Under the pieces are notes generated by a model. That model searched no databases. It had not been told where the DNA came from and saw only the letters and a list, made by a program, of their open reading frames with translations. A program made the position numbers and the translations under genes. DNA of 64,000 bases from a virus: the IMG/VR virus record IMGVR_UViG_3300011269_000001. One strand, 5' to 3'. Within the stretch, counting starts at the first letter, position 1. Each line of letters starts with the position of its first letter. Positions 10,462 through 47,107 of the stretch are shown here, piece by piece.

Positions 10462-12581
10462 GAGACCACCCGAGAATGCCCAGTCGATTTGTCGAATTCA
10501 ATGTCGATAAACTGCGAAAAAGATTCTTTAACTTCGGTCATGTGGTCAATCACCAGGATGAGCTTCTCCTGAGCATAGCTGCGAAGAACTTCCAATGCGG
10601 ATTCCTTAGTCACCAGTCCCTGGCCTTCCCCGCTTTCGTCCATTGAGAACCAACCAGGCATGCAACCAGTCCGGCGTTGAATCACGTCCATGAGAGCCAG
10701 GTCGACGATTTGATGCACGCTGGCTTTCATGCCGCCACTGAGCGCCGCTTCGAGTCTACCTTCGTGGCCGCCGACATTCACCAACGGCACGATGGACTTC
10801 TTGAGCGTACCTTTCTGCAGGAGTGATTCGGTCCTGAACCTAATAGTCACATGAGATACGTTCGGTAACCGTCCAAGTCGGGTATTGGCCTCTTCACTGA
10901 TTTCCTGCAGGATTTCGTCGAAAACCAGCCCCAGGAATCCGTTGCGGCCCACCATTTCCACGTAGTCTTTTTCCTGGGCCAAACTCTTCTGCAAGGTCGT
11001 CAGCTTTCCCTGAGCCACAATTACCAATTCTTCCTGAGTCAGGACTTCTTGGGTATTGCGGTCGTATTCTCTTTGCTTCCATTCGTTCCCACCCTTGATG
11101 GCTTCAATCTTGTTTCGGGCATGGGCGATGAAGTTCCCCAACTCAAGCACCTTTGCAAGCCGGCTAGAGACCAAAGCCTCGGCTTCCATTTCTTTTTTGT
11201 ATTTCTCCCGGCGGACGTTCTCAAAGTCAGCTCTCAGCGCAGTCGTCTTTGTGTTCAGCGCGTCAAGGGCTTGGAGCTTTTCTCTTTCAAATCGGGCGGC
11301 CTCGGCGCTAATATCATCATCGAATCGTATCTTCAGGTCTTCAAGCTTCTTGATGTCTTCGTGAGGCTGGAATGCATTTTGCGCAACGGCGATGGCACGT
11401 TGGACCGTGATGGTGAACGGGATAACTACGTTTTGGATGTTGTGAATCTTTGTCTTGAGCTGAGCCATTTCCTCCATGTACTTGGAGATATCCATGGCAA
11501 CATCCTGAGGCCATTCCTGACCGCACGTCGGGCAAAGGTCTTCCTTGACGGCCTTGATTTTGGCTTCAATGGAATGAAGTTCTTTTTCCAGGTGCGGGAG
11601 ACTGGCAGCAATACTGAGGGCTCCGGTCAGTTTCTGCCTCATGTCCTGAATGGCTGCGTCTTCTTTCTTTTTCCGGGCGGTGTCATCAGCCTGAAGGTCT
11701 TTGATTCTTTTGATGATACTCTCCCGAAGAGCTACCAATTCACTCTTGGGCATTACCTGAGCACGTACCTCCCGGGCATCTTTTTCAAGACCGAGGATGA
11801 CCGCGGATAGGTCGTCCATCTTCTTGTTAAACCCGCCCTCGCTAATATTCTGTGATGACAGAACCTTAACCGCCTGCTTGGCTTCTTCGTGTTGGTTCTT
11901 CGCTTCTTCAAGCCTGCGCTGCGCATCCTCCAGGACAGTCACAACCCCAGAATCGTCTTCGAAAATAAGCTGTCCGGTGTTGTTCTTCTTTCTTTCTAGG
12001 GCTTGCTTCTCGCTTTGTAGAGCAGCTTCCAGCTGAGGTAACTGCCTGGTCAGGTTTTTGATTTCTTCTTCGGCTGCGTCCACCGAGGCCTCGAACCGGT
12101 CCAGGCCCACCAGTTGAGATAGGAATTCTTTTTTCTCTGAGTCAGTCTTGCTGAGGAACAGACCTCCGCGGGCCTGTGCTCTATACGTCAGCGCAGCTAG
12201 AACTTCTGGAATCTGACCAAAGACCTTCTGAAAATTCTCGCTGATGGCCCGGGCGCCGGTGATGGTTTGGTCGCCAATCTTGAGAACGTTTTTCTTTCCG
12301 CGGCCAATGACTACGTCACCTTGTGGTGTGCCCAGGCACAAGTAGACCTGCAGGGGCTCGTCAGTAAGCCAAGACTGTAATTCAGTCGCCGGCAATTGAC
12401 CAGGAAAATCCAGGGCGTAAGCAATGGCCAAATTGACATTGCTCTTCCCGGTTCCGCTCGATTCACCGCTCTTGTTGTCGTTGCCTCGGATGAGAACGAG
12501 ACCAGTCTCAGGGAATTTGATGAAAGCCTCTTCCGCGAAACTTCGAAAGGCTTTCATTTTCAGCCACTTGAGTCTTATCAC
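10446..12581 (-). CDS. Rad50/SbcC/gp46-like SMC ATPase
   Basis: Walker A SGTGKS, coiled coil with CPTC zinc hook, LSGG signature, Walker B MDE, C-terminal DH. Confidence 0.92.
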   Translation of the reverse strand: MIRLKWLKMKAFRSFAEEAFIKFPETGLVLIRGNDNKSGESSGTGKSNVNLAIAYALDFPGQLPATELQSWLTDEPLQVYLCLGTPQGDVVIGRGKKNVLKIGDQTITGARAISENFQKVFGQIPEVLAALTYRAQARGGLFLSKTDSEKKEFLSQLVGLDRFEASVDAAEEEIKNLTRQLPQLEAALQSEKQALERKKNNTGQLIFEDDSGVVTVLEDAQRRLEEAKNQHEEAKQAVKVLSSQNISEGGFNKKMDDLSAVILGLEKDAREVRAQVMPKSELVALRESIIKRIKDLQADDTARKKKEDAAIQDMRQKLTGALSIAASLPHLEKELHSIEAKIKAVKEDLCPTCGQEWPQDVAMDISKYMEEMAQLKTKIHNIQNVVIPFTITVQRAIAVAQNAFQPHEDIKKLEDLKIRFDDDISAEAARFEREKLQALDALNTKTTALRADFENVRREKYKKEMEAEALVSSRLAKVLELGNFIAHARNKIEAIKGGNEWKQREYDRNTQEVLTQEELVIVAQGKLTTLQKSLAQEKDYVEMVGRNGFLGLVFDEILQEISEEANTRLGRLPNVSHVTIRFRTESLLQKGTLKKSIVPLVNVGGHEGRLEAALSGGMKASVHQIVDLALMDVIQRRTGCMPGWFSMDESGEGQGLVTKESALEVLRSYAQEKLILVIDHMTEVKESFSQFIDIEFDKSTGHSRVVSCPKD

Positions 12582-21084: not shown

Positions 21085-21655
21085 GCAGCTTCTAAACATA
21101 CGAGAGCAGGAAGCCCACGAGAAGTACCTCCGTGGCGGCGGTGCTCCGTTGGCGCCCTCGACGGCTGGGAAGTTCTTTGAACTATTTCTTCAGGGCCATA
21201 GCTGTGAGGAGATTGCCAAGCTCAACCCAGGCTTTGGTCTCGGCATCGTCGTCAAGGCTCGTCTTGACCACCACTGGGATGACCTCCGTAACGAACACAT
21301 GCTGGAGTTGATGAAGGGCATCCGCAGTCGTGTGCAACAATCACACCTTGAGGCTGTGGTCTTTGCCGCCGACGCCATGGCTGTTTACCACAAGCTTATG
21401 GGTGACAAGTTCAAGAAGTTCTTGCAGACCGGCGACCCGGCTGAGTTGGGAGAGTTCAAAAACGCTAGCTTCAGGACGTACAAGGATTTTGTCGACATGC
21501 TGCTCAAGCTCACGGGACAAGATGGGGCCAAGAAAGCTCCACCGATTGACCCTTACCACAATCCCCAGGCGGTCGAGCAACCAGGCCCCCCAAAGGCCAT
21601 GACGGCAGATGAAGCCCGGATGACCATCAGGGGCTACGTGAAGAGAGTCAAGTGA
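21044..21655 (+). CDS. putative terminase small subunit
   Basis: HTH-like FLQGHSCEEIAK, GAGGAG SD, overlaps the terL start. Confidence 0.5.
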   Translation: MTEQSLTVQSQPIEQLLNIREQEAHEKYLRGGGAPLAPSTAGKFFELFLQGHSCEEIAKLNPGFGLGIVVKARLDHHWDDLRNEHMLELMKGIRSRVQQSHLEAVVFAADAMAVYHKLMGDKFKKFLQTGDPAELGEFKNASFRTYKDFVDMLLKLTGQDGAKKAPPIDPYHNPQAVEQPGPPKAMTADEARMTIRGYVKRVK

Positions 21656-23595
21656 GCGACCTGACAGAATCAGATAAGGCCCGGCTAGCCAATGCTGTAT
21701 TCTTTTCCTGTGAGACGAAGGAAGACCTTCAGGATTGGATACGGTGTTACATAGGTCTTGACCTTCCGGATTGTATCGTTGACCCTGAATCAACTTCTTC
21801 CCCGATGGACTTTGTCTGGGAAGTTTACAACGAGAGCCGCAAGAATAAGCCAGCTTTCAGTCGAATTCTGGCCTACAGCTGCCGAGACGGTTTCAAAACA
21901 TTAGGCGCATCGATTCTTGAAGCGTTAATGATTTTGCACATGGGCCGCAGTGGCGCTCACATGGCAGCTACTGAAATTCAGTCTAAGAAAGCTCAGAGCT
22001 ACGTCAAGGACTTTTTCAACAAATCTTTCCTAACCCCTTTCGTTACGGTCCGCAACGACCGCCGGTTGGAATATCTTCGTTTTTTCAATCCAGAGCTTGG
22101 CGAGAACCTGACGCAGGCTCAATGGGAAGGTCTTCCCGAAGCTGTTCGGGAAACGTACGAAAGAATCTACAACTACATTCAAATTGTCATCTGTAATACC
22201 GCCGGTTCCCGAAGCGAGCACGTCCCTTACATGTCCGTGGACGAAATTGACGTCATCCCGACTGAAAACAAGAAAGCCTATGAAGACGCGAAGTACATCC
22301 CTGCTCCTTGGAAAGGAAAGCAACCTATTACCGTTCTGACTTCCACTCGGGAATTCTCGTGGGCTATTGTTCAAAGGGAAATCGACAATGCTGCGAACAC
22401 TGGTCTTGAGGTTCGGCATTGGAACATTATCGACGTCACAGAATCTTGCCCGCCGGGAAGACATCTTCCAGCCGAGCCCAAGATTCCCATCTACTACAGC
22501 CGGGAGAACCTCCGAGCCATCAGCGAAGTTGAGTACGAGAACCTAAACGATGAGCACAAGACCCTTTATGCCCGGGATGAAGGATACGCCGGCTGTCTGA
22601 AGAATTGCAAGCTCTTTGCTGTTTGTCGTGGGCGGCTCGCCACCATGCAAAAGTCCAAGTCCCCACTCTTGAAGGGCATTGACTACGTTCAGGACAAGTT
22701 CAAGGAAGTTTCTGTTTCTGGCGCCAAAGCCCAACTCCTTTGCTGGAAGCCCTCGGACACGGGTTTGATTTATCCGAACCTCAATCGTGAAATCCATGCC
22801 CTTACTGCTGCTCAGATGTGGCAGAAAATAACCGCCGAAGAGTGCGACCCAAATCTGACGAAGCTACAACTCATTCAACTTATGCTCGAACGGGGAATGA
22901 GATTCTTTGCCGGCATCGACTATGGTTTCAGTCACAACTATGCTGTTGTTACCGGTGCCGTCGACGGAGCAAATGCTTACGTTCTCGACGTTATAGCCAT
23001 AGCTGGTCTGGAACTGGACCAGAAGATAGAACATACCCAGAGAATCAGACCCTGGAATCCGACCTGCTTTGGCGACCCCGAAGCTCCAGCGGATACGAAG
23101 ACCTTCAAACGCAAGGGCTTCAAAATGAAGGAGTGGGTCAAATATCCAGGAAGCGTGAAGGCTGGCATTGAAGTTGTGCGGATGAAGCTCATGCCGGCCA
23201 TGGGCAATCCGACCCTTTTCTTCCTGAAGGGCGATGCTGGTGTCGAGTTCTTGTTGAAGATGATGAGCAAGTATCACTTCAAGCTCAATGCCGACGGGAC
23301 TGTCAGCGAAATACCAGCCGAGGAAAACGATGACGAATGTGACGCCATTCGGTACTACATCATGAACGTTTTCGCGCCGAAGGGAAAAATAAAATCCAGT
23401 ATTGAATCCGAAGGCATGGTGCAGACATACGTGGACTCTGAATATCCGGAGGTTCTGGCGGCAAAGCGGGAACAGTATACCGAAGAGAACTGGATGTCCA
23501 AAATCATTGCCGAAAACACCGGCGAGGAAATTCCTGAATCTGAACAACCGACGACTAAGGGGAAGAAGGGAAGTTTCGTCTGGGATATCAGTTAG
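21652..23595 (+). CDS. terL: terminase large subunit
   Basis: Walker A-like CRDGFKT, Walker B SVDEID, TST, nuclease GIDYG and DDECDAIRY. Confidence 0.88.
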   Translation: MSDLTESDKARLANAVFFSCETKEDLQDWIRCYIGLDLPDCIVDPESTSSPMDFVWEVYNESRKNKPAFSRILAYSCRDGFKTLGASILEALMILHMGRSGAHMAATEIQSKKAQSYVKDFFNKSFLTPFVTVRNDRRLEYLRFFNPELGENLTQAQWEGLPEAVRETYERIYNYIQIVICNTAGSRSEHVPYMSVDEIDVIPTENKKAYEDAKYIPAPWKGKQPITVLTSTREFSWAIVQREIDNAANTGLEVRHWNIIDVTESCPPGRHLPAEPKIPIYYSRENLRAISEVEYENLNDEHKTLYARDEGYAGCLKNCKLFAVCRGRLATMQKSKSPLLKGIDYVQDKFKEVSVSGAKAQLLCWKPSDTGLIYPNLNREIHALTAAQMWQKITAEECDPNLTKLQLIQLMLERGMRFFAGIDYGFSHNYAVVTGAVDGANAYVLDVIAIAGLELDQKIEHTQRIRPWNPTCFGDPEAPADTKTFKRKGFKMKEWVKYPGSVKAGIEVVRMKLMPAMGNPTLFFLKGDAGVEFLLKMMSKYHFKLNADGTVSEIPAEENDDECDAIRYYIMNVFAPKGKIKSSIESEGMVQTYVDSEYPEVLAAKREQYTEENWMSKIIAENTGEEIPESEQPTTKGKKGSFVWDIS

Positions 23596-24636: not shown

Positions 24637-26847
24637 ATGGCCAAAAAGACTTCCATAGAAGCGGACCTCTCACCGTTCGCTAAAAGCCTCATCGAGACTG
24701 TTGTCAGCAATCGGCCGACCAAGGTGGCTAAGTCTGTAAAAAAGGGCAGCGGCAACATCCAGATGATGATGAATTACCCTTCCTTTGACGATACCCTCAA
24801 CGTCCTGGAGGCAGCGGAATTTAAGAAGCTCGAAGAGGAACTGAATAAGAAAGTAGCAAGTTCCAGTCCTCTTGTGAAGTCGGTTCTTAACGTCCTCAAC
24901 GGACCAGGCAAGGTCAGCATTGAGCGGTTGGCCTTTGAGACAGACCCCAGCCAACACAACATTTACCAGAGTGTCTACCGGGTAAAGCTTCGGCTCCTGC
25001 CCGATGACATCCTGAAGCGAATCAGTATCCAAGACGACCTTGTGGCGTCTATTGCCAACGCCCGCTGCAACCAGGTAGCTGTCTTCGGACGTCCACAGCC
25101 AGACCGCTTCGGAACCGGATTCAAGATTGAAGCTGAGCCCGGGTATATGGAGAAGTTGGACAAGGAAGAGAAGAAAAAACTCCAGGAGAAGATTCGTAAG
25201 GCCGAATTGAGGCTCCTGAATTGCGGTAGCACCACCGGCTGGTCTGACAAAGAGGCCCTGACCTTCAATCAGTTTCTGTTCATCTCTGCCCGCAATGCGG
25301 TCATCTTCGGTCGGACGGCAACGGAAATCATTTTCAAGAAGACCATGGATGGTAATAGGGAATTCCATTCTTTCAGGCCCATCGACGCCGGTACTATCTA
25401 CCAAGCTTCGCCCCAAAGGGAAGCAGTGGAAAGCGTCCGCCAAGAAGCTCGAAAGCTGTTGGAGCAACTCAAGAACCGAAAACTGGAGCCGGAGAAGTTC
25501 GCGAATGACGAATACGCCTGGGTCCAAGTTGTTCACGGTCGTCCGGTGCAGGCTTTCACTCCTGATGAATGCTTAGTCCACAACTTCTATCCGGTCTCTG
25601 ACGTTGAACTTGACGGGTATCCGTTGACGCCAATCGACACGATGATTGCTGCGGTCACGACCCATATCAATATCACGAACCATAATAAGCTCTATTTCCA
25701 ATCCGGTCGCGCAGCCCGTGGCATGATTGTCATCAAGTCGGATGACGTCGACGAGGGAGTTATCTCCAAGATTCGGCAGCAGTTCAACGCCAGCATCAAC
25801 AGTGTTGCCAACGCATGGCGTATGCCCATCTTTGGCGTCGGCAGCGATGATGAGATTGGCTGGTATCCAATCGACAACAGTAGCCGCGACATGGAATTCC
25901 AGTATCTTTCTGATACGAATGCCCGGGTTATTCTCTCTGCGTTCCAGATGAGTCCTGAGGAACTCCCGGGCTACGCACACCTGAGTCGTGGTACCAACAA
26001 TCAGGCTCTCTCAGAAAGTAATAACGAATACAAGCTCGAAGCCCACCGTGACGTTGGCATCAGACCCCTAGTGGGCCAGTTCCAGAACTTTATTAACAGC
26101 CGAATCTTCCCGCTGATTGACGAGGAACTGGCGAAGATTTGTACCATCAAGTTCATTGGCCTCGACGTAGATACTGCCGAAAAGGAAGCCATTAGACTCC
26201 AGCAGGACATGGGCATTCACATGACCATGGACGATGTTCTGGAGCGCGTCGAGAAGAAGCCGCTTGGGAAGAAATTTGGCGGCAAGTTTATCCTCAATCC
26301 TCAATGGCAGGCTGTCCTTGACAAGTATGTGCCCGTGGGCGTCATCATGGAGGAATTTTTTGAAGTCCCAGGCGCCAGCAAAGACCCTCTCTATGCGTAT
26401 CTCCGGGACCCGTTCTATTTCACGCAGGTTCAGAATCTCATGCAGCAACAGCAGCTGCAACAGCAAGCCGAGCAGGCTAAGCAAGCCGCAGCTCAAGGTC
26501 AGCCACTGCCTGGACAAGAAGGCCCCCCTTCGGATAGTGGTGGTGATGGTGGACCGGCGAAGAGTCGTGAGCAGCATGGAGCAGACCGCGAGCAGGTCAA
26601 GGAACAGGGCGAACAAGGCGGCTCTGACCAATCTGCTGGTGACCAAGGTCAGGACCTGACTCGGTCCATCGACCAAATGATTGGACTCCTTAGCAAGAGC
26701 GAAAACCAATTGCCTCCTTCCAAACGACGCCTGATAGCTCAACAACGGAAGCTGGTGACCAGCGCCCTTGAAGCCTGGGAAAAAGATAGCCAGGACACGC
26801 TGAAGGAAATCACCGATATCGCGCTGAAACATCTGCCGAGGAAATAG
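24637..26847 (+). CDS. portal protein
   Basis: FRPIDAGTI, NKLYFQSGRAARGMI, AWRMPI, DMEFQ, FQMSPEEL, GIRPL; position in head module. Confidence 0.88.
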   Translation: MAKKTSIEADLSPFAKSLIETVVSNRPTKVAKSVKKGSGNIQMMMNYPSFDDTLNVLEAAEFKKLEEELNKKVASSSPLVKSVLNVLNGPGKVSIERLAFETDPSQHNIYQSVYRVKLRLLPDDILKRISIQDDLVASIANARCNQVAVFGRPQPDRFGTGFKIEAEPGYMEKLDKEEKKKLQEKIRKAELRLLNCGSTTGWSDKEALTFNQFLFISARNAVIFGRTATEIIFKKTMDGNREFHSFRPIDAGTIYQASPQREAVESVRQEARKLLEQLKNRKLEPEKFANDEYAWVQVVHGRPVQAFTPDECLVHNFYPVSDVELDGYPLTPIDTMIAAVTTHINITNHNKLYFQSGRAARGMIVIKSDDVDEGVISKIRQQFNASINSVANAWRMPIFGVGSDDEIGWYPIDNSSRDMEFQYLSDTNARVILSAFQMSPEELPGYAHLSRGTNNQALSESNNEYKLEAHRDVGIRPLVGQFQNFINSRIFPLIDEELAKICTIKFIGLDVDTAEKEAIRLQQDMGIHMTMDDVLERVEKKPLGKKFGGKFILNPQWQAVLDKYVPVGVIMEEFFEVPGASKDPLYAYLRDPFYFTQVQNLMQQQQLQQQAEQAKQAAAQGQPLPGQEGPPSDSGGDGGPAKSREQHGADREQVKEQGEQGGSDQSAGDQGQDLTRSIDQMIGLLSKSENQLPPSKRRLIAQQRKLVTSALEAWEKDSQDTLKEITDIALKHLPRK

Positions 26848-27798: not shown

Positions 27799-28254
27799 TT
27801 AGATGGTAGCTTTCTGCATTTTGACGTGACTTTCGTCGTAGGTGACGTCGAGAACGTTCTCGCCGGCCCCATCGACGTTGATATCCGGAAGCTTCCTCGA
27901 CCAGGTAGAAACCCCTTCCTCTACAGAAATAGTCCCGTCAAGGAAGTCGCCGTTGACCACGACTCGGCTTTCGGCTGCATCGCGGAGGAATTTCGGCGCC
28001 AGCGCCACGGCGCCATCGCCATTGATTCGAAAGGCTCCGGCTGGTCGAACCATTTCCCGGCCATCGCTTCGGGTCTCAGTCACCCGGTAGACGCTGCCGG
28101 TTATGGCTCCGTCGTCGTGCTCACGGTTACTGGATTCCCAGAAATAGGCCTTACCTTTGACCGTGTAGGTATTTTGGCTCTTGGTGGAAATCAGACAAGC
28201 CGCGGTCCATTTCCGGAGGGTTTCCGCTGCGGCGCTAGAGTAGCTGGTGCCCAT
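27799..28254 (-). CDS. hypothetical protein, antisense moron in the head module
   Basis: AAGGAG SD; own TTGACT-N17-TAGAAG promoter-like sequence near 28298-28326. Confidence 0.65.
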   Translation of the reverse strand: MGTSYSSAAAETLRKWTAACLISTKSQNTYTVKGKAYFWESSNREHDDGAITGSVYRVTETRSDGREMVRPAGAFRINGDGAVALAPKFLRDAAESRVVVNGDFLDGTISVEEGVSTWSRKLPDINVDGAGENVLDVTYDESHVKMQKATI

Positions 28255-30893: not shown

Positions 30894-33800
30894 ATGGCGT
30901 CTACAGGAATGGTACTTGACGGCGTCCTCGCGTCCGAGGCCATTGACAGCTCCGGTGAAATCCTCGACATCAAAGGCGCAGACATTTCCGACCTTGTTGA
31001 GGGCAAAGGTATTCTCAACTGGGAACACAACGGAGACCAGGGCAGTCAGGACATTGTTGGGAAAATAATCTACGCCAAGAAAATATTTTCCGAGAAAGAC
31101 TGCGACAACGACCGGGAGCTTGAGTTCTATCATAAGGTCAGGTTGCCGTTGATTTACGGCATCGGGCGCCTCTTTGACGGTTCCGGTCATCCGAATGCAG
31201 TAGCTCTGGCCGCTCAGATTCGCGACTACCTGGCCAATGACGAGCCCATCATCGTCGGCTTTTCCATCGAGGGTTCAACGCTCGAATCCAAAGACAAGAG
31301 ACTGCTCAGGACCGTGTGTCGGAAGGCGGCTCTGACGGTCAAGCCCTGTAACAAATCCTGCGTTGTCGGCGTCGTGGAAGACCCCAACGCCCCGAAGGGC
31401 TTCAAACAGAAACCAGATGACAGCCTGAAGCTTAACGAGCACCCTAATTACACTCGACTCGGCGGCTCTGAGTTACAGTTCAATCCGGTTCTGGATGGTG
31501 ATGTCCTCCAGCGGGCATTGGCCAAAGTTGAATCCGTCCGGAAGGCTCTTGAAGCCGGGAACTATAACGTGGCTCCTTCGGCTATGACCGGCGGCGCTGC
31601 CCTTCAAGTCGAAGACCGAAGTCTGCACCTGGCTCATCTCCGCAATCAGGCCCGGGCAGCACTTAGGGACTGGGACCGGAAGACGCCGTTTCGTGAGGTC
31701 CTGAAGCACAAGCTCCCAGAGGCCAGTGACGATTTCATCGACCGATTCTCGAACCTCGTCGATAATTACACGATGAAGCTCAGGAAGGCTCAGGAATCTT
31801 TTTCCAAGTGCATGGAATGCTCAAAGCCGCCCAGATACGAGGCCCGGTGGGCTGAAGGCATGGCCAGGGTCTGGTTCTGCGAAGACCATTGGCCTCAGTG
31901 GGAAGAAAAGCACCAAGACGACATCGACTTTGTCCGGAAGCTGACTGACGCCCGGGTCGGAAGTAAGTATGGTGAGGCTCCTGGGGAAACTCTTCAGAAA
32001 GCCGAAAAAGAATCATTGAACTGGACTGCCGGAAAGCAATCATGGGCTGGGGAAACAAAAGTACATTCTGCCGGAGCCCGTCATGGAGAATACCACGTAT
32101 TGCCACACCAATCGGGAGGTTTTGACGTCCAGTATTACAAAAAAGGGCACGACTCTCTAAGGTCATCTGCTAAAGCCTCCACTCTTGAGAATGCCAAAGA
32201 ACTTGCTTCTCAGCATCATAATTCTGGGGAATGGAAACTTTACAAGAAGGAAGGTGAACCTCGAAAGCCTGGTAGCCGTGGCAGTCAAGCCCCGTCATTT
32301 AAGAAATGGGTAGAAAGTGGCAAGGCCGAGACTGAGCAAGCCACCATCCGCGGCAAACCCGTGCAGCCGAATCCTCAAATCAAGCAACCTCATTTCGACG
32401 AGAAAGCCGGAATTCTGCATACCCCAAAGGGCAGCTTCCCGATGTATATCCCCTCTCGGGATAAAGAGAACAAGGGCGCTGGTGAAGCTTTCCACAATAT
32501 CCTCAATGACCCCAAACTCAGCAAGTTTCACGATTATGCTACTGAGAACTGGGCCCAGGTTCATAAGCTTCTGAAAGAAGGGAAACTCCCCGAGGAAGTC
32601 ATTATGCACGGAGTTCTCTTCTCCCAGCTCAGCCCTAATACTCCGGTGCCGGTGCAGGAATTGATGTACGGTCATCTTGTGGATTCGATGAAGCACACGG
32701 GCCTGGACCCTCGACATTCCGAATTTTCGAACATCCGTCAGGATTGGCTAGGTCGAGACAATCCGTCAGTGTTCCCAGAGCATGGCCGCAGCCATTTCGA
32801 ACGGCTCCAAGAAGAACTCCGGAATAAGAGAGACTCGAAGCTCACTAACCGCAAGGCCGGGGATATCAGCAGCTTCATGTTGGCGAACAATAAGTTCAAG
32901 AACATGGAGAAGTACCATACTCTCCACCAAGGTCTTGTGGAATTGGTAAATCGCCATCGCCATGATGCCCGCTCCGCCGTCCAGGAGCTGATGGACCACA
33001 AACACCGCGCCATGCTCTGGAATTCGAAGCGAAATCGGGACATCGATAAAGGTCTTCCAGACCCTGGCGAATACCAAGGCCCAGTGGTTCCTGGTCTTGC
33101 TCCCAAGACGGCCAGGTATACGTACGGGATGATGGGTGGTGGAAACGTCATAGTCCCGGATACGCACATGAGCCGGTATCTGTTCGGGTTGGAGAAGGGC
33201 AAAGACAATCCGACGATTTCTTACGTCAAGGACCTGCTCTGGAATCCGAACAACAGTGAAGTCCTGAACGCCATCGACCGCTATTACGCCAAGCACCATG
33301 ACGCCGTCAAGCACATGCGCGAGCATCCGCGTTGGGGCTCGGAATTTGAATCAGACGAAGACGCTATCTTCCCAGCGTTTTGGAAGAATTGGGTTGCCAT
33401 CGCTCCTCACGAAAAATTCCGCGGCCTGTCGACTCTGGCTCATAATGAGGCCACCGACCATCGACCTTTCTGGGAAGCAATTGCTCCGCATCTGACCAAG
33501 AACGAAGGCGAATCCCTGGATACGTCTTTGCCCGAGAAGACTGCCATAACCATGCATTCTTGGGTCAAGGAATATGGCGAAGTTCCGGCAATGATGCTCT
33601 ACTATCGATACCTGGCACCGCAGCTGTTAGAGGCTGCCAAGCGCCGGTTAAATAAGAAACCGAATCCGGTGATGAAGTTCGAGGCCATGACCATTGAACT
33701 CCGGAAGGCTTTCGGCGACCCGAATATTTTTGACCGACAGGGTCTTAAGTCGCCGGCTAAGGCGGTATTGGGTACTCCGGAACGGGCGAAAGCTTACGCT

Positions 33801-34742
33801 CAGGAATTTGCTCAAAAGAATGAGCAGAACCGGCTGCGAAATATTGTTGATTCTCAGCGTCATAGTGTCGGTGAGTACAATCAGCGCCCGGAACAACATA
33901 AGCTTGTCCACGGCCTTGATTTCAACAAGGAAGGCAGACGACCGGAAGCCCCTACGGCTCAAAGCGAAATGTCTCATTGGCGGAAAGCTCCAACTGGGTC
34001 TTGGGCGTTTGTAAAAGGGAGTTCTATCATACACCGGAGCGCCTATACGCCTGCGGGGGGTGGCAAGGCCCTGACTGAGCCTCACGAAGCTTTCAACGAA
34101 GCACGGCGCGAGGGATTGTTTCATAACCTAGCCCACAACGTTTTCAAGCTCGGCAATTACCTGCCCACGGTCTCGGTGGTACACCATCCAGATTCCGGCG
34201 ACGAACTTGCAGTCATCGAGAAAATCAAAGGCGGCGAGCATTACCATGATTCTCCTCAACACCGGGCAATGCTTCAGCAATTGGGTGATAGCGGTGAACT
34301 CGACAAGTTGATGGCTCAAGACCTTATCCTGGGAGTGCCAGACCGACATGACCACAACTGGATGGTAACGCCCAAAGGAATGAAGGTCCTTGACCATGGA
34401 TATGCTTTTGAGGACCCGGGCAACATTCCCGACTATATCGAGCGGTATTCATTTCTGGGCAGAGACTTCAAAAGCATGAAGCCTCACGAGCTTACCGAAC
34501 TTGCCCGGAATTGGACCGGCGCTCCGGTGCACGATAGCGCCCGTCAATTCATCAGAGACATTGACGAGGATGCTCTCCGTCATGAGATGGTCAGGCATCA
34601 GGCCCCGCAGCATATCATCGAACAGACGATGGAAAGACTCCGGAAGGCAAAGGAAATAAACGATGACGAGAAATTCAAGCACGGACTTCCGAGGATGAAA
34701 CTCTGGAATTCACACGCTTACCGTGGTCCCGAGGATTACTAA
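30894..34742 (+). CDS. prohead protease polyprotein: protease + capsid-like peptide + small Cys/His domain + HhH-GPD glycosylase-like domain + PI3/4K/HipA-like kinase
   Basis: protease DSSGEIL, NWEH, GFSIEG, ALTVKPCN; HhH PGLAPKTARY...VPDTH; kinase FVK...REG...DRHDHN...LDHG. Confidence 0.8.
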   Translation: MASTGMVLDGVLASEAIDSSGEILDIKGADISDLVEGKGILNWEHNGDQGSQDIVGKIIYAKKIFSEKDCDNDRELEFYHKVRLPLIYGIGRLFDGSGHPNAVALAAQIRDYLANDEPIIVGFSIEGSTLESKDKRLLRTVCRKAALTVKPCNKSCVVGVVEDPNAPKGFKQKPDDSLKLNEHPNYTRLGGSELQFNPVLDGDVLQRALAKVESVRKALEAGNYNVAPSAMTGGAALQVEDRSLHLAHLRNQARAALRDWDRKTPFREVLKHKLPEASDDFIDRFSNLVDNYTMKLRKAQESFSKCMECSKPPRYEARWAEGMARVWFCEDHWPQWEEKHQDDIDFVRKLTDARVGSKYGEAPGETLQKAEKESLNWTAGKQSWAGETKVHSAGARHGEYHVLPHQSGGFDVQYYKKGHDSLRSSAKASTLENAKELASQHHNSGEWKLYKKEGEPRKPGSRGSQAPSFKKWVESGKAETEQATIRGKPVQPNPQIKQPHFDEKAGILHTPKGSFPMYIPSRDKENKGAGEAFHNILNDPKLSKFHDYATENWAQVHKLLKEGKLPEEVIMHGVLFSQLSPNTPVPVQELMYGHLVDSMKHTGLDPRHSEFSNIRQDWLGRDNPSVFPEHGRSHFERLQEELRNKRDSKLTNRKAGDISSFMLANNKFKNMEKYHTLHQGLVELVNRHRHDARSAVQELMDHKHRAMLWNSKRNRDIDKGLPDPGEYQGPVVPGLAPKTARYTYGMMGGGNVIVPDTHMSRYLFGLEKGKDNPTISYVKDLLWNPNNSEVLNAIDRYYAKHHDAVKHMREHPRWGSEFESDEDAIFPAFWKNWVAIAPHEKFRGLSTLAHNEATDHRPFWEAIAPHLTKNEGESLDTSLPEKTAITMHSWVKEYGEVPAMMLYYRYLAPQLLEAAKRRLNKKPNPVMKFEAMTIELRKAFGDPNIFDRQGLKSPAKAVLGTPERAKAYAQEFAQKNEQNRLRNIVDSQRHSVGEYNQRPEQHKLVHGLDFNKEGRRPEAPTAQSEMSHWRKAPTGSWAFVKGSSIIHRSAYTPAGGGKALTEPHEAFNEARREGLFHNLAHNVFKLGNYLPTVSVVHHPDSGDELAVIEKIKGGEHYHDSPQHRAMLQQLGDSGELDKLMAQDLILGVPDRHDHNWMVTPKGMKVLDHGYAFEDPGNIPDYIERYSFLGRDFKSMKPHELTELARNWTGAPVHDSARQFIRDIDEDALRHEMVRHQAPQHIIEQTMERLRKAKEINDDEKFKHGLPRMKLWNSHAYRGPEDY

Positions 34743-35878
34743 TGGACATTCAACATGAGAACATCTGGCTGGTCTTTGCCGTGCATCCCAAAGATGGAAG
34801 TGACACGATAGAGCGAAGCCTTGTCGGGAAATTCAGCCTACATGATGGCAGACTGGACGTCCTGGAAGACCATGTAGGTTTTCTCAGGGACTTGGAGCGG
34901 CAACCTCCGGCCGTGGCGACGCGGAAAATCTGGTCTATGGAGCATTCACCATACCTGCAGCTCATCAGTCTCGAAGAGCTGAAGCAGGGCGAACATCCTG
35001 ACCTACAGCCGTACTTGACAATGGTTCATGGTAAACTCGAAGATGTCGAACAGCCAAAGGGAGAGAATGTTTTCGAGTACCATCGACAGGGCATGGAAGC
35101 GCCTCAGACCGTCACCGTCAATGAAGATGGCACCGTCCTCCTTGATGGCCACGAGCTTATCCCCGAGGAAGTCCAGAGACTTCTCCAGAACGCAGCGCAG
35201 GGCGTTGCCACAATCCGTTATCCCCAGGACCACGAAGACCAGGCCATGCAGAAGATGGAGGCATTGCTAATGAGTCTTGACGGCGTTGGCGAGTCTGGCC
35301 TCGGCAGGGCCATGCAAGAACTCCGCAAGGCCCAGAAGGATGGCCGCATCGAATCTTACGTCGCTGAGGAAATTGCCCGGCATCTATTCAAGGACACCTT
35401 GGTTCCGGTCATGGGGAATCTGAAAGCGTACCGAGATTTTCTCAGTCGCCCGCGGCGGGGCATCCACGTCCACATCGACGGGAACCAATTTAAGTCCATC
35501 AACGACACCCACGGTCACGAAGTCGGTAATCAGGCCATCAGGGGTATCGGGATGGCAATTCGTTCAGCTCTCGATGAAGCGATCGGACGCGCCAAAGCAA
35601 AGTCCTTTCGTACCGGCGGTGATGAATTCGTGGTCCATGTGCCAACTCACCAGGAAGCGGCTCATTTCTCTAGAGTCCTGAGGTCCAAGCTCGAAGCCCT
35701 GCCGCCTGTCGGCGGTACTCATGGCCTCAGCGTGTCAATGGGATTCGGAATGGTTCCGGAGCATGCCGAAGCAGCACTGCAACAGGCCAAGGAAGCCAGC
35801 CACCAGGCCAATTATCAGCCGGGCAAGGCTCAGCATCACGTCCATAGTTTAGTTCCGGGTTCTGAGGGAGCCTTGTGA
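34742..35878 (+). CDS. GGDEF-domain nucleotide cyclase with N-terminal extension
   Basis: IDGNQFKSINDTHGHEVGN, FRTGGDEF, SVSMG, AEAALQQAK; TAATG overlap with the protease gene. Confidence 0.88.
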   Translation: MDIQHENIWLVFAVHPKDGSDTIERSLVGKFSLHDGRLDVLEDHVGFLRDLERQPPAVATRKIWSMEHSPYLQLISLEELKQGEHPDLQPYLTMVHGKLEDVEQPKGENVFEYHRQGMEAPQTVTVNEDGTVLLDGHELIPEEVQRLLQNAAQGVATIRYPQDHEDQAMQKMEALLMSLDGVGESGLGRAMQELRKAQKDGRIESYVAEEIARHLFKDTLVPVMGNLKAYRDFLSRPRRGIHVHIDGNQFKSINDTHGHEVGNQAIRGIGMAIRSALDEAIGRAKAKSFRTGGDEFVVHVPTHQEAAHFSRVLRSKLEALPPVGGTHGLSVSMGFGMVPEHAEAALQQAKEASHQANYQPGKAQHHVHSLVPGSEGAL

Positions 35879-38215: not shown

Positions 38216-39607
38216 ATGGCAAGTGAAGTCACCCAAGCATTGCTGAAGGCCCTAGAGGCGGGCAACTACAATGCAGCTCCCTCGACTTTGGTCCAGGGTT
38301 CCGCATTGCAGATTGAAGACCTCTCGCCGGTGATGAACAACGTCACCTACGATGACAGCCACATTAAGCTGCAGAAGATGCTGAAAGTCGACCCGGTCAA
38401 GAGTACCTTGGCCCAATTCGACCGTCAGCTCAGCTACGGCATCTTCGGGGCTACCGCCCAGAACGAAGGCGCAGTCGGTCAAGAGGAAATGAGCGAATAC
38501 GTTCGTATCGTGGTCCCGATGGCCTATTATAGCCATGTTCGTCGTGTGACGGTGGTCGCAAACCTCGTGGCAACGGTCGACGGCGTCAAAGCCGAAGAGC
38601 GGGCAGCCAGCGACGGTGCGAAGAAAATTGCCGGCGATATCGAGTTCGACAGCTTCCGCGGTAAGGCGGACTTCTCGAACGCGGGTCTTTTCGACGGCTC
38701 CATGCTTGCTATCCCCGGTCTTCCGAACATTCTCGGCCTGGATGCCCAGGTCCGGATGTCGGACGGTCAGCGGAACGCAACGGACTTGATGTTCGGCGAG
38801 TTTGGGTCTGACGACACCGTGGTCATCCAAGGTGGCGGTACCCTGACGCAGGACAACATCGAAGACGCCAGTGTCCGGTCCTCGATGAACTTCGGTATGG
38901 CGGACAAGTTAGTCGTCGACCCGAAGGTTCTCAGCGCCTACAACAAGATTTCGTTCGGCAAAGAGCGAATCATCCTCGCCGGGGCTCCTCAGGACGCCAC
39001 CAGCGCCGACCTTCGGCGTCAGTGGGTGTCCGGTGGAACCGTCAACGTCGAGGCTTCTCGATTCCTCTCTGGCAAGACCCGTCCGGCAACGGCACGGTCT
39101 TCTTCGCCTGGCGCGCCTTCCATCGCGCTGACGGACAACGCTGCTCAAGGCACCAGTGCTCCGGCAGGTACTTACAACTACTACGCTTCAGCTGTCAACG
39201 AGCGTGGTGAGTCTGTCAAGTCGACCTCTGTGACTGTGACCATTGCCGCTGGCGACAGCGTGACGGTTACCATCACTCCTCCGGGTTCCGGCGTGGTTCG
39301 GTACTTCAACGTGTTCCGTTCGAATGCCGGCGGCAACGATGCGACCTCGCGGTTCATCGGCCGTGTGTCCAACAGCGGCGCTGCGACGACAACCTTCCTC
39401 GACCTGTTCAACAAGAATCCTGGTTTCGTCACCGGCTTCTTGATTCAGGGCGATACGATGGCTTTGAAGGAGTTAGCCCCGTATTCTAGGCTGAAGCTTG
39501 CAGTTACGGACCTGAGTATACCTGAAGCGCACTTCAGGTTTGTAACGCTAGCCGTTATGCATCCGAGAAAGAATGTTCTGGTAGACAATCTCAGAGGCGC
39601 ATTCTAA
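38216..39607 (+). CDS. major capsid protein (Herelleviridae-like, with Ig/FN3-like insertion)
   Basis: LLKALEAG...ALQIEDL N-terminus; YYASAVNERGES insertion; AGGAG SD; followed by a terminator. Confidence 0.9.
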   Translation: MASEVTQALLKALEAGNYNAAPSTLVQGSALQIEDLSPVMNNVTYDDSHIKLQKMLKVDPVKSTLAQFDRQLSYGIFGATAQNEGAVGQEEMSEYVRIVVPMAYYSHVRRVTVVANLVATVDGVKAEERAASDGAKKIAGDIEFDSFRGKADFSNAGLFDGSMLAIPGLPNILGLDAQVRMSDGQRNATDLMFGEFGSDDTVVIQGGGTLTQDNIEDASVRSSMNFGMADKLVVDPKVLSAYNKISFGKERIILAGAPQDATSADLRRQWVSGGTVNVEASRFLSGKTRPATARSSSPGAPSIALTDNAAQGTSAPAGTYNYYASAVNERGESVKSTSVTVTIAAGDSVTVTITPPGSGVVRYFNVFRSNAGGNDATSRFIGRVSNSGAATTTFLDLFNKNPGFVTGFLIQGDTMALKELAPYSRLKLAVTDLSIPEAHFRFVTLAVMHPRKNVLVDNLRGAF

Positions 39608-39633: not shown

Positions 39634-39675
39634 AAGCCGGGCGAGCCCTAAAAAGCTCGCCCGGCTTCGTTTTTG
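39634..39675 (+). terminator. intrinsic terminator after MCP
   Basis: AAGCCGGGCGAGC / GCTCGCCCGGCTT 13-bp stem, then CGTTTTT. Confidence 0.85.
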
Positions 39676-40306: not shown

Positions 40307-40379
40307 TCCACTGTAGCTCAATCGGGAGAGCGCCTAACTGTTAATTAGGAAGATGTTGGTTCAAATCCAACCTGTGGAG
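40307..40379 (+). tRNA. tRNA-Asn(GUU), no encoded CCA
   Basis: acceptor TCCACTG/CTGTGGA; anticodon arm CCTAA-CTGTTAA-TTAGG; T-loop TTCAAAT; G73. Confidence 0.9.
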
Positions 40380-40401: not shown

Positions 40402-40884
40402 ATGAAAATTATTTTCCTCGACATGGACGGAGTCCTGAATTGCTATGACACCACGGACCGGATTGTGTTCCCGCCCTGGAATCAGACATTCTTGGGCCTG
40501 GACAATGATAAGGTCCAGCTGCTCTCCAAGCTCGTCCAGGAAACCGGCGCCAAGGTCATCATCAGTTCCAGCTGGCGAGAAAACTTCAAACCTCAAGAAC
40601 TTCAGAAGACCCTCAACGAGCGTGGATTCACCGGTGAGGTTGTCGGTGAAACCCCGAAGTCTTACGAGCAGGTAGGCTTTGGCCTGCCCTCTAAGCGCGG
40701 TGACCGTAGCGATGAAATCCAGGCCTGGTTGGCGGCGAATCCCGGGCTGGAGTCGTTCGTGGTCGTTGATGATATCAAGACCCGGTACTTGGACATGGGC
40801 AGGCAGGTACAGACAAGCATGGTCACAGGTTTTACGCAGGAACACTACGACCAGGCCCTGACGATTCTCAACAAAGCTCTTTGA
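40402..40884 (+). CDS. HAD-family (Swiss-Army-knife RNA-repair type) phosphatase
   Basis: IFLDMDGVLN, ISSSWR, RSDEIQAWL, VVVDD. Confidence 0.85.
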   Translation: MKIIFLDMDGVLNCYDTTDRIVFPPWNQTFLGLDNDKVQLLSKLVQETGAKVIISSSWRENFKPQELQKTLNERGFTGEVVGETPKSYEQVGFGLPSKRGDRSDEIQAWLAANPGLESFVVVDDIKTRYLDMGRQVQTSMVTGFTQEHYDQALTILNKAL

Positions 40885-43494: not shown

Positions 43495-43779
43495 ATGGAC
43501 GCGCTTAAGATGGCCGGGGTTCAGCTACTGACCAACAAGATTATTGAAACGCTTCGATTCTATGGAGTTGAGCCGGCTTCGATTCAAGTCGAGCCGGTTC
43601 GTTCTGACCAACTTGACGTCTTCCCGCTGCGGTTCACCTGTGTCCTGAAGCTGCCCAACCCTGTGAAGTTCGTCCAGCTGAATCTTGAGGAACTTTCTGA
43701 TACGAACGCCCAGGTCATTCTCTCCGCGTTCCAATTGAATTTTATGGACCCGTCCGTAGAGGATTTCCCAGATGAGTGA
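43495..43779 (+). CDS. small protein carrying a copy of a portal peptide
   Basis: LSDTNAQVILSAFQ versus portal LSDTNARVILSAFQ; 37/41 nt identity. Confidence 0.7.
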   Translation: MDALKMAGVQLLTNKIIETLRFYGVEPASIQVEPVRSDQLDVFPLRFTCVLKLPNPVKFVQLNLEELSDTNAQVILSAFQLNFMDPSVEDFPDE

Positions 43780-45180
43780 ATCCTATCAGCCGGAAATTGA
43801 GAAGCTCAAGAATGACTTCGTCAACTGGTGCTGCACGTGGCAGATTGCTGCCCGTCCGCACAGCGGGATGACTGCAGTCGAATGGGCTCTGGATGAGATT
43901 GGCAGGATGACGCTTTATTACCTTCTGGACAAAATGAAAATCCGGCTCTACAACGGGCCTCGTCACGGTCGCCAGCTGGTTCACGCCGTGGTCATCGATA
44001 AAGACATCATGGCAAAGATGCTGGCCACCAAGACCAGCAGTGCGTACTACGAAATCCTAGACCCTTTTCGGAAGCAGGGCCTAGACGACATGCATTTTAT
44101 TGTTCCCGACGCCGTACACAGAATCGGATGCACCTGCTGCCAGGGCGATGGACCGGATATCGACATCCGCCACCCGCGGCCTCAACTTGATGGCTCGGCT
44201 GTGGTAGAATTCTGGGTTGATTTCGATTTCAGGATGCCGGAGGCAGAAGAAAATGAAGAAGAAAGCTAAGCCGAGCCCGTTTCCACGTGTGATTTATGTA
44301 TTCGCCGACGAAGAGTTGCATTCGGGTGTCGTTAACCTGTTAGTGAACAACGGTGACGGAGTTGATGATATTTCTGCCGGCTCGCCGGTGGCTATCTACA
44401 AGCTGGTAGAGACTGGCACGGTCAGGGTTCAGAGCCAGTTTGTTCCGCACTTCACCCCCGGGAACCTGCAGGGTCGAGGTTAAGATGTTCCCTCCTAAAT
44501 GGCTCAAAAAGTTTCGTTGGGACAATGCCAAGCGAGTCACCAAGGCCGACCGCCTGGAGTGGACACGGGGCGTCTTCCAGTCCCTCGTCGGCGGCAAGAC
44601 GAAGGATTATTATTTTCATCTCAGCGGGGATTCCGCGGTCCTGGGCTTTCGGACCGAAAAGGGTCACATCAGTATCTACGACGTGAAGGTGAGAACCATT
44701 TGGGAAGGCTTTGAGCCAAAATGAACCCCGTGGCTGGAATCAAGTATTACTTCCGGTACGGATTCTGGACCACGGTCAAACTTGACTGGCGGGTCTTCGG
44801 GCTCCGTTGGCGTACCTTCTGGAGCCAGCTATTGACGCCATACCTATGGCGAGAACTTCCTCTGCTCCGAAAGCAGATTATCCAACTGACGAACGACCTC
44901 GTCAACGCGGAACAGAATATGGGCAGATGCAATCACTTGACTATCAGAGCCCCGTTCCTGCCCTGCCCGCATCCTGACTGCTATTCGGTTGGTGGAACGC
45001 TCTACCTTAACCACTACCCTGGCCATTGGATTCCGAGACTATTCCTAACACCTGAGGAGCCTATGACGCAACAATCTTCTTGGAAGAGGGAAAAGGTAAC
45101 GATTGGATACAACGCTTATCCCCGGACTGAAGTTTGGGCCTGGATTCCTCTCTGCGGATTTCCTCCGAAGGAGAATCCAG

Positions 45181-46542
45181 ATGCCGTATAGTGGAAAATC
45201 TTTCGTTTTCATCTGTCCGTTCAGCTGCCGGCAGATTCTGAACGTCAGGGCTGCTGACCCCAACGAGGGCTGGATTGACCTTCAGGGACCCGGGACTTCA
45301 TGGGTTAACCTGCACAGGATTTACTGCGACTACGATGTTTGGGACCCCCTGGCAAAAGCGGTCGTGACGTCGAGTGTTGATGACGACCCTATTTCTGATG
45401 AGTTCCCCAATCTGGATGCAGTTCTTGGGTACTTGGTTCCCGGCTATCGCGAGGATGAAGATTTCATCAAGGAACTGAACCCTGACCTCAGTGAGCTACC
45501 GGCTGTAGAGGAAGATGTTGTTTACGACCTGCCCGACGAGAAGTTTCAACCTGCAAAGACCAAGGTCTTGACCGGCGCGGTGGCCAAGCTCATCATCAGG
45601 AATGATGACGGTACGGAACGCGAGATTATCCCTCTCAACAATGTTTCCTGGAGTATGAATTACGACACGAAGCCCGTCTTTATTCTCGGCAAGACCGACC
45701 CCGTTGAATACAGCCCCGGGGATGCTGAAGCAGTGTACAGGGCTGTGACCTGGGAGTCATCGCATAGCGAATCTGGAGAGCTTATCAATGACTCCGGGAC
45801 TCCGCCGGCAAGAGTTGAGTTTATTTCCGCTGAAGAGGCAGTGAAGAATGTGCCGCAGTACTATGACAGCGTTAAGCGGGTAACAGGACCGGTGTTTACC
45901 TTTCCGGTCGAAAAGATTGAAATCGCGGAGGAACTTATCCAAGACCCGCAAAAGGCCTGCGAAGCCGACCGAGACCTCAGCGCCGAAGGCGACCTGTTCC
46001 TGACCGACAAGAGCATTTTCGGGGACATCGACTCCATTACCTGCGATTTCAAGCCTCCAGGCCCCTTGACCATGAAGATGATTGAAGATGCATGGATACA
46101 CGCTCTCAATGACCATGGCCGTTGGCGCGACCACGATTTTGTCATGGACCCGGTAGAGTTGAAGGCTTATCAGGATATTATTGAAGAGTCCGAGAAGAAG
46201 AAATTTAGTGGTCTCGGTATCCAGCTCCCGGAGCTACCCGAAGGTTCGAAATACTGGAATGTCTACCGTGGCTCCGACAAAGTCTTTGCCGGCACCGTGA
46301 ACGCGGCCGGCAATTGGATTGACCTCGACGAGGAAGAAGAGAACGAAGAGACTCCGGTCATCGACGACGAGCCTGATGAAGGTGATGCCCCGGACTGCAT
46401 GCGCTGTGGAATTGAACTCTGCGACGCCCTGGACCATTGGTACGGGCATCCGGATGACGTCCGCCAGGACTACTGCGCCAAGTGCCGGAAGCTTCCAGAG
46501 GTCGACAAGCTCGGCCTATCACCTGACTACAAGGGGACGTGA
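45181..46542 (+). CDS. acidic mosaic protein with degenerate MCP segments and a tail-tube-like segment
   Basis: collinear similarity blocks to the MCP at 38216-39607 (see findings). Confidence 0.65.
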   Translation: MPYSGKSFVFICPFSCRQILNVRAADPNEGWIDLQGPGTSWVNLHRIYCDYDVWDPLAKAVVTSSVDDDPISDEFPNLDAVLGYLVPGYREDEDFIKELNPDLSELPAVEEDVVYDLPDEKFQPAKTKVLTGAVAKLIIRNDDGTEREIIPLNNVSWSMNYDTKPVFILGKTDPVEYSPGDAEAVYRAVTWESSHSESGELINDSGTPPARVEFISAEEAVKNVPQYYDSVKRVTGPVFTFPVEKIEIAEELIQDPQKACEADRDLSAEGDLFLTDKSIFGDIDSITCDFKPPGPLTMKMIEDAWIHALNDHGRWRDHDFVMDPVELKAYQDIIEESEKKKFSGLGIQLPELPEGSKYWNVYRGSDKVFAGTVNAAGNWIDLDEEEENEETPVIDDEPDEGDAPDCMRCGIELCDALDHWYGHPDDVRQDYCAKCRKLPEVDKLGLSPDYKGT

Positions 46543-46804
46543 CCCATGGGCTATCCAATGACCTATCGGCGGGTTATCAACCGCAACAACCTCCTGGAAG
46601 GTTATGAGAGCACGAGGCCTAACCGTCTCATTGCCGGTGACCTCCGGCGTCTGGAGGCCGACACCCGAGATGAAGGGCATTTGAATCTCTACGCTCAGAT
46701 TGCAGGCACGACCCCGGACATCGTGAAAAAGATTTTCGATGAATTCTTTGAATGCAGTCGCTGGAAGTTTACGCCAAAAGGCATCGAATTGTTTTTGAGG
46801 AGAA

Positions 46805-47107
46805 ATGAAAATGAAAAAGCTTGACGGTTTCGTAGAAATCAAAACCCTGACTCCGGACATGGAATTCGCGCCCGGAATTGACCCCACGACCGCGGGAATA
46901 GCCGTGGTCGAAGCCGGTGGGAAACTCTGGCCTTGGACCAAACTCAGCACCCAACGTGACATCGAGGAAGCCTGGGTTCTATTCGAAGGTATCGGGCTAC
47001 CGGTTACCATCGTGTACATGAATGCTGACGACCTGAAGGCTTACAATCAGTTGGTGTGGAGAACGAAGGAAACCGTTATCCTCCGGGAGTCAGATGAGCT
47101 TGCGTAG
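46805..47107 (+). CDS. small protein with a degenerate MCP segment
   Basis: TQRDIEEA...AYNQLVWRTKETVIL versus MCP TQDNIEDA...AYNKISFGKERIIL. Confidence 0.6.
   Translation: MKMKKLDGFVEIKTLTPDMEFAPGIDPTTAGIAVVEAGGKLWPWTKLSTQRDIEEAWVLFEGIGLPVTIVYMNADDLKAYNQLVWRTKETVILRESDELA

Follow-up and report, generated by a model that had tools for sequence, protein, structure and literature searches.

Why would a phage carry short pieces of its own structural proteins inside unrelated small genes? The question is raised by a 64,000-nucleotide stretch of viral DNA (IMG/VR record IMGVR_UViG_3300011269_000001; hereafter the window), contained in the complete 164,871-bp genome of a myovirus from soil, a bacterial virus and kin of Myxococcus phage Mx1. 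A preliminary description had noted three open reading frames (ORFs) outside the structural operon, had described them as accessory proteins built from degenerate fragments of the portal or the major capsid protein (MCP), and had proposed that they may be decoys for bacterial immune sensors or else modulators of assembly. All three are present outside that operon, behind the terminator that follows the MCP gene:

43495..43779, plus strand: ORF A, 94 amino acids, a 75-amino-acid host gene plus a 19-codon in-frame block with a portal piece
45181..46542, plus strand: ORF B, a 453-amino-acid chimera with an AAGGAG ribosome-binding site before its ATG
46805..47107, plus strand: ORF C, 98-100 amino acids

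They are not built wholly from fragments but are chimeras, with a virion piece inside an unrelated body. As judged from sequence, the phenomenon is family-wide, selected and biased in its donors, and a decoy function is plausible, although we hold it with slightly less than even confidence.

A 21-amino-acid stretch of ORF A matched the portal protein, with 13 of 14 core residues identical and a score of 66, where shuffled sequences reached 48 at most (p = 0.002). The corresponding DNA match (41 bp, 90%, E = 1.65e-7) was the strongest self-match of the genome bar the terminal overlap. The elements concerned are the following:

43693..43734, plus strand: 14 portal-derived codons, portal residues 424-437, the helix after the clip
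43675..43740, plus strand: indel block, with imperfect 9-bp direct repeats at both ends (43675-43683 and 43732-43740)
24637..26847, plus strand: portal gene (donor), in PHROG portal families and matching the phi812 portal (E = 4e-21); donor stretch at 25906-25947

The piece was identical to the phage's own portal gene at 37 of 42 nucleotides, compared to at most 34 of 42 for 18 other family portals and 29-34 of 42 for relatives encoding the same amino acids; the donor was therefore this lineage. It differs from the donor by four synonymous and one non-synonymous change, and the donor stretch is invariant among three alleles. A natural allele (P0020) lacks exactly 57 bp, the 19-codon portal block, and is otherwise an allele of ORF A. 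Insertion by template switching and later slippage deletion are both compatible with this block, and the polarity of the indel is undecidable because there are only two alleles. With the portal block excluded, the ratio of non-synonymous to synonymous divergence (dN/dS) between the alleles was 0.12. A homologue search returned one allele and no distant relatives. The body of ORF A (43495-43680) had alpha-beta-beta look-alikes in the ESM Atlas, including a gp25-like cluster at a template modelling (TM) score of 0.53; a gp25 or sheath C-terminal-type unit is an unproven lead, the sequence remnant of sheath having P = 0.03-0.04.

ORF B joins, in this order, an N-domain, a tube hairpin, an eroded MCP copy, an acidic linker and a CxxC..CxxC end. 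Its virion-derived parts and their donors are as follows:

45553..45735, plus strand: tube piece, tube residues 2-57, N-terminal strands and beta-hairpin (ORF B residues 125-185)
45745..46017, plus strand: upstream MCP pieces, MCP residues 43-49, 103-146 and 182-193, individually non-significant
46018..46212, plus strand: MCP A-domain piece, MCP residues 196-257
46219..46332, plus strand: MCP Ig-like insertion-domain piece, MCP residues 349-399 (ORF B residues 347-384)
38216..39607, plus strand: MCP gene (donor), HK97 fold; A-domain stretch at about 38801-38986
G000:C1:18908-19381, minus strand: tail-tube gene (donor), beyond the window, after the sheath gene; matches the phi812 tube (8q01, E = 4.5e-7)

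The best match of ORF B was the tail tube (BLASTP 44% over 50 amino acids, E = 2e-7; z = 16.6), with a profile match of the tube piece at a hhalign E of 6e-11; the preliminary description had not seen this match, and its donor lies outside the window. The A-domain piece (ORF B residues 280-344 against MCP 196-256) showed 31% identity (p = 0.004; profile E = 8e-4), and the Ig-like piece had a hhalign E of 0.003. With long-gap scoring, residues 189-384 approximately form a collinear, heavily deleted MCP copy (p = 0.002-0.003), and when the proteins of the genome were ranked by this chain score, MCP came first with the window allele and third with the other one. Between the alleles, the A-domain piece is the fastest-evolving part of ORF B, with a dN/dS of 0.39 inside it, 0.17 outside it and 0.10-0.17 downstream, and at similar synonymous divergence (pS) its amino-acid change was 3 times that of the C-terminal part. 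Both alleles retain the helix-start and turn motifs in this piece. In its 3′ half ORF B is a recombinant allele, with pS rising from about 0.05 ahead of residue 275 to 0.2-0.5 beyond it, and the tube piece is uninformative on selection because it is identical between the alleles. Homologue searches gave near alleles only, and an AlphaFold 2 (AF2) model had a predicted local distance difference test score of 32, too low for structural comparison with the surfaces that sensors read.

The L255 orthologue of ORF B has kept the N-domain, its tube- and MCP-like parts being below significance; the tube- and A-domain-like stretches recognised by eye were not significant (E = 0.1-0.2). A DNA repeat of about 55 bp ends two different L255 genes (L255:10113-10172 and 12148-12207). 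The short orthologue stops at the second copy, and in the window ORF B runs on from there into the A-domain piece; the repeat is a possible boundary of a recombination cassette.

The third member of the group is closer to background. Residues 48-95 of ORF C (46946-47089) matched MCP 210-258 with a borderline pairwise p of 0.048, and MCP was not its top match in the genome; the hhalign E was 3e-4, and a fragment profile gave E = 0.008, level with the best null hit (0.0075). This stretch is probably, if only at the border of significance, an MCP A-domain piece. Of the structural pieces claimed earlier, the portal piece of ORF A therefore stands and the MCP piece of ORF B stands at moderate strength; that two ORFs share the same MCP segment is firm for ORF B and only probable for ORF C. 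No relatives of ORF C were found among 1.8e9 representatives, the ESM Atlas gave no usable match, and a match to phrog_7742 (E = 0.006) is to a family of unknown function. Pfam and PHROG scans placed A, B and C in no family of known function and in no known anti-defence family. In an assembly of the same phage (L256:1622-1909), the reading frame of ORF C is shifted within its last 15 codons (P0009), and P0010 shares this altered end; it is either a true variant or an assembly error.

Similarities of this kind could reflect chance or convergent helix patterns, and ORF C and the outer pieces of the MCP chain of ORF B do fall individually within or near null levels. The in-frame DNA matches (ORF A and the tube piece of ORF B), the exact indel allele and the family-wide matches with an empty null described below argue in the opposite direction. 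Chance is a highly improbable account of the cluster, and on the sequence comparisons it is already refuted for A and B.

The clustering is not peculiar to these three ORFs, and two further carriers lie elsewhere in the genome:

27799..28254, minus strand: 151-amino-acid ORF ending in MCP 42-54 (27811-27849)
G000:C1:10517-11002, plus strand: 161-amino-acid ORF (L257) with MCP N-arm residues 7-45 (51%, E = 4e-7)

The piece at 27811-27849 has 77% nucleotide identity to the phage's own MCP gene. In the second ORF, the MCP piece is preceded by a Trp/Arg-rich, Pro-ending stretch, and G030_7762 is laid out similarly.

We surveyed 22 related genomes with 43 core-family profiles cut into 587 tiles (274 from virion or packaging families, 313 from replication or metabolism). 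At E <= 1e-5 there were 17 tile matches, 13 of them fragment carriers, in 8 of the 22 genomes, compared to 0 matches in a reversed-ORF null at the same threshold. The donors of the 13 carriers were MCP (6), portal (2), sheath (2, one orthologous pair), tube (2) and the large terminase TerL (1). The remaining four matches were three ORFs of 260-306 amino acids matched by non-structural families, namely R159907, a full-length ClpP paralogue, G007_14645 and G009_1573 (290 amino acids), and one Ig domain in a long protein. At this threshold no short fragment came from the 313 replication and metabolism tiles or from 166 other virion and packaging tiles, and no carriers were found in Mx1 or G001. 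Looser thresholds added further MCP and portal carriers. SbcC matches were set aside as coiled-coil noise that appears in the null as well, and a 39-bp in-frame match (85%) to DnaB at the end of a HAD-like gene (40840-40878 in 40402-40884) was rejected as a probable coincidence in a last helix of the kind usual for the family.

The carriers are mostly unrelated outside the fragment and would therefore have originated repeatedly and independently. Seven of 16 MCP events overlap residues 210-222 (A-domain) and six lie within residues 4-57; the A-domain (about 7 times), the N-arm (5 times) and the tube hairpin (at least 2 times) each recur between unrelated flanks. A donor within the same genome was clear for the 27799 ORF and for the N-arm piece of G007 too. 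In older pieces the synonymous sites are close to saturated, which makes the donors unassignable, and most of the old fragments lie no nearer to their own gene than to those of relatives. In a DNA-level scan, the strongest copies, including ORF A and the tube piece of ORF B, lay in frame within intact ORFs, with few exceptions. Pieces also occur close together in relatives: TerL, a possible sheath end and the MCP N-arm within 1.1 kb at G009:C1:46273-47414 (L166), and the portal clip and the MCP spine helix within 1.3 kb, 3.5 kb after MCP, at G003:C1:58207-59470 (L035-L036). A conserved family of about 100 amino acids (G011:C1:119860-120153; homologues in G012, G015, G017, G023 and G027) adjoins a DnaB-like gene in G011, G015 and G023; it weakly resembles the portal clip region (E = 1e-4, one member), and the G017 member ends MCP-like.

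Taken together, these comparisons trace the pieces to virion genes. Orthologue pairs of relatives gave fragment-segment dN/dS values of 0.17-0.45. The preliminary description had named shuffled controls and neutral evolution as checks: the alignments of A and B beat shuffles, and purifying selection acts on A, B and the fragment segments (dN/dS 0.12-0.45 in allele or orthologue pairs). These values demonstrate at the codon level that the chimeric proteins are held under protein-level selection and, together with the in-frame state of the strongest copies, led us to reject pseudogene debris. Full-length structural paralogues (a vertex protein, a second tube or a cryptic protease) were likewise rejected, as the pieces miss most of the parent fold: coverage is 2% of the portal and about a third of the tube, and the MCP copy in ORF B is without the N-arm, the E-loop, half of the A-domain and the last strands. 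Tagged head cargo was also discarded, the terminal 4-mers of 172 small ORFs showing no enrichment and the location being outside a late unit; LxK[AS] sites are absent from A and C, with one in B (chance level).

The genes are thus real and selected by these measures, and the selection may be on the host gene rather than on virion resemblance. Gene birth as a by-product would deposit virion-gene pieces in a recombination-prone island, by illegitimate recombination or from abundant late mRNA that had been reverse-transcribed, and leave in-frame inserts that are tolerated or serve as generic folding units. It would fit the portal block of ORF A, which is dispensable in a natural allele and flanked by 9-bp repeats, the decay of the tube- and MCP-like parts in the L255 orthologue, and the fragments generally, which as a rule are under constraint no stronger than that on the remainder of the gene (0.29-0.45 vs 0.22-0.35). 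A few DNA-level self-matches fall in non-structural genes or wrong frames, and detection is biased to conserved segments. Yet the equally conserved GroEL, DnaE, ribonucleotide reductase, RecA, helicase and most other virion genes yield no pieces, the low-copy portal and TerL are among the donors, and 13 of the 16 MCP events fall in two segments although MCP conservation is flat over residues 1-300 (0.75-0.80). The four synonymous changes and one non-synonymous change of the ORF A piece, set against an invariant portal stretch (p about 0.09, an estimate), are suggestive only. On balance we judge such a by-product unlikely, though not negligibly so.

We favour, tentatively and at somewhat under an even chance, the reading that the carriers are homology-derived immune decoys. 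Brief stretches of the MCP, portal, tube, sheath or large-terminase gene, from the phage itself or from a relative, would again and again be copied in frame into accessory genes that turn over fast, with template switching at short homologies as the probable mechanism. Because most of the parent fold is missing, the chimeras would be unable to build capsid or tube. By presenting a portion of a conserved virion surface, they would occupy sensors of the STAND/Avs, CapRel or DSR2 type without fully activating them, so that the genuine late proteins would be protected. The restriction of all 13 carriers to MCP, portal, tube, sheath or TerL favours decoys, as does the overlap with modelled Avs epitopes, although ORF C itself is weak. 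MCP 203-249 forms a strand-helix-strand-helix unit in an AF2 model and is assigned from HK97 topology as the core of the A-domain. In published models, Avs7, Avs8 and Avs10 bind the penton/hexon capsomer interface of the A-domain and Avs16 binds the beta-hairpin of the tube, with targets bound as monomers (Lee et al., 10.64898/2026.01.04.697583). ORF B carries both elements and may be a multi-epitope decoy whose A-domain part is being retuned. Patchy carriers, segments that are captured repeatedly and an A-domain piece that changes faster are the pattern expected of decoys under host conflict, and the presence/absence polymorphism of the portal block and the patchiness would fit accessory conflict genes.

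Several points weigh against this reading. Avs sensors bind extended folded surfaces (10.64898/2026.01.04.697583), which pieces of 14-60 amino acids may fail to reproduce. The survey yielded no helicase/RecA, polymerase, neck or tape-measure fragments, and the same sensors detect these proteins. Truncated targets can activate sensors rather than block them. No sensor is known to read the MCP N-arm, which is the second hotspot and which the phage protease reuses too. The depth-7 pile-up on MCP (p = 0.01-0.02) comes from a test that is inflated, ORFs B and C having come from a targeted search, and recombination accounts for part of the allelic divergence of ORF B. Finally, the hotspots cannot separate a decoy from an assembly modulator, because assembly interfaces coincide with immune epitopes.

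Such a modulator would use the pieces as assembly-interface handles, docking cargo or regulators on proheads, portals or tails, or poisoning the assembly of co-infecting related phages or satellites. The recurrent segments are all subunit contacts (the N-arm, the capsomer-forming A-domain, the inter-ring tube hairpin and the portal clip/stem), and old fragments that are mostly no closer to their own gene would fit non-self targets. There is also a precedent for the reuse of an MCP piece: residues 213-243 of the prohead protease (31530-31622) are a 31-amino-acid copy of the MCP N-arm (residues 7-37, 38234-38326; 61% identity), a core feature because it is conserved in most family members, and perhaps a cleavage or docking motif. 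A CAATCTT box, common before late genes, lies at 45072, 103 nt upstream of ORF B. However, this single box is inside the preceding gene and within chance for a 7-mer; the carriers are patchy, mutually unrelated, outside late operons and behind the MCP terminator; and a self-derived poison would endanger its carrier, the youngest piece (ORF A) being nearly identical to the phage's own portal. We give handles of this kind a rather low probability.

The remaining landmarks of the locus are these:

21652-23595, in the window: TerL gene
30894-34742, in the window: prohead protease gene
39634..39667, plus strand: strong terminator-like hairpin after MCP, dividing the head operon from the accessory island

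ORFs A, B and C belong to a tightly coupled plus-strand run, 3.9-7.5 kb 3′ of the MCP gene and the terminator. The island consists of small coupled genes, and its content is very different even in a phage with a 91% identical MCP. The structure of MCP is closest to the SPO1 capsid (9vel, TM 0.74). A CAATCTT/TAATCTT box 7-45 nt ahead of many virion genes is a candidate late promoter, judged by its placement; sites in the window are at 20635, 23604, 28358, 28923 and 30859, with many more outside it, and CAATCTT occurs in 51 plus-strand and 28 minus-strand copies. A GGDEF-domain gene (34742-35878) lies within the head operon, coupled to the protease, and is found in Mx1 and L254 too. A second ClpP-like protease (G000:C1:4045-4965, minus strand, 306 amino acids) has a predicted hydrophobic N-terminal segment and coiled coil. 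At position 40312 the window has T and the full genome sequence G.

Bacterial pattern-recognition immunity is triggered mainly by virion proteins, which do not mutate easily, and this raises the question of how phages that have to make them escape. A broader proposal, that large phages 'self-sample' their capsid, portal, tube, sheath and terminase genes, taking the segments that receptors read and grafting and diversifying them as antagonists, is more doubtful, at roughly one chance in three. If it were true, the captured segments would map immune epitopes in the genome, some of them new, such as the MCP N-arm and the sheath C-terminal domain. Decoy action lends itself to testing on the Avs, CapRel and DSR2 panels now available, with about 20 natural carriers to draw on; the two natural alleles of ORF A, one of which lacks the 19-codon portal block, are a built-in control. 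Even if assembly-related or neutral, the carriers would be a clear case of phage gene birth from core-gene fragments with a strong donor bias. In open-access papers and bioRxiv coverage we found no published report of homology-derived virion-fragment genes or decoys.

Among known systems, the Gol peptide of T4 gp23 is a short capsid peptide that suffices to engage a host factor; it triggers exclusion and lies within an intact capsid protein. The T4 capsid-targeting sequence is a common 10-amino-acid N-terminal tag that addresses proteins to the prohead. Compared to both, the pieces described here are internal and of many kinds, and no common tag was found. Mx1, the closest cultured relative (OR576727.2; PMC10720576), has a 60% identical MCP, the same core gene order and a genome of about 170 kb but, unlike the phage studied here, no detectable fragment carriers. 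Tab and Tai (PMC10884400, PMC11364771) are small proteins acting on the virion assembly of competing phages; they are defence genes of prophages, satellites or hosts and, unlike our carriers, are not described in the abstracts as virion-gene pieces, whereas the carrier here appears to be a lytic Mx1-like phage. The targets of Avs7/8/10/11/16 and Avs2/4 (10.64898/2026.01.04.697583; PMC13601566), namely the MCP A-domain, the tube beta-hairpin, portal and terminase, match the donors found here; these systems are the host side and the carriers are phage genes, and fragment decoys are not mentioned in the former paper (10.64898/2026.01.04.697583). Like trigger-mimic anti-defence genes, the carriers are small, accessory, outside the structural operon and patchily distributed. 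DSAD1, the anti-DSR2 protein of SPbeta-like phages (PMC10973363), is likewise a small accessory phage protein and fills the sensor pocket for the tail tube, but with a convergent fold, whereas the carriers, known from their sequences, are homology-derived; as decoys they would work in the manner of DSAD1. Self-derived fragment decoys, if that is what they are, would be a simple and renewable answer to virion-sensing immunity, unlike convergent mimics such as DSAD1.

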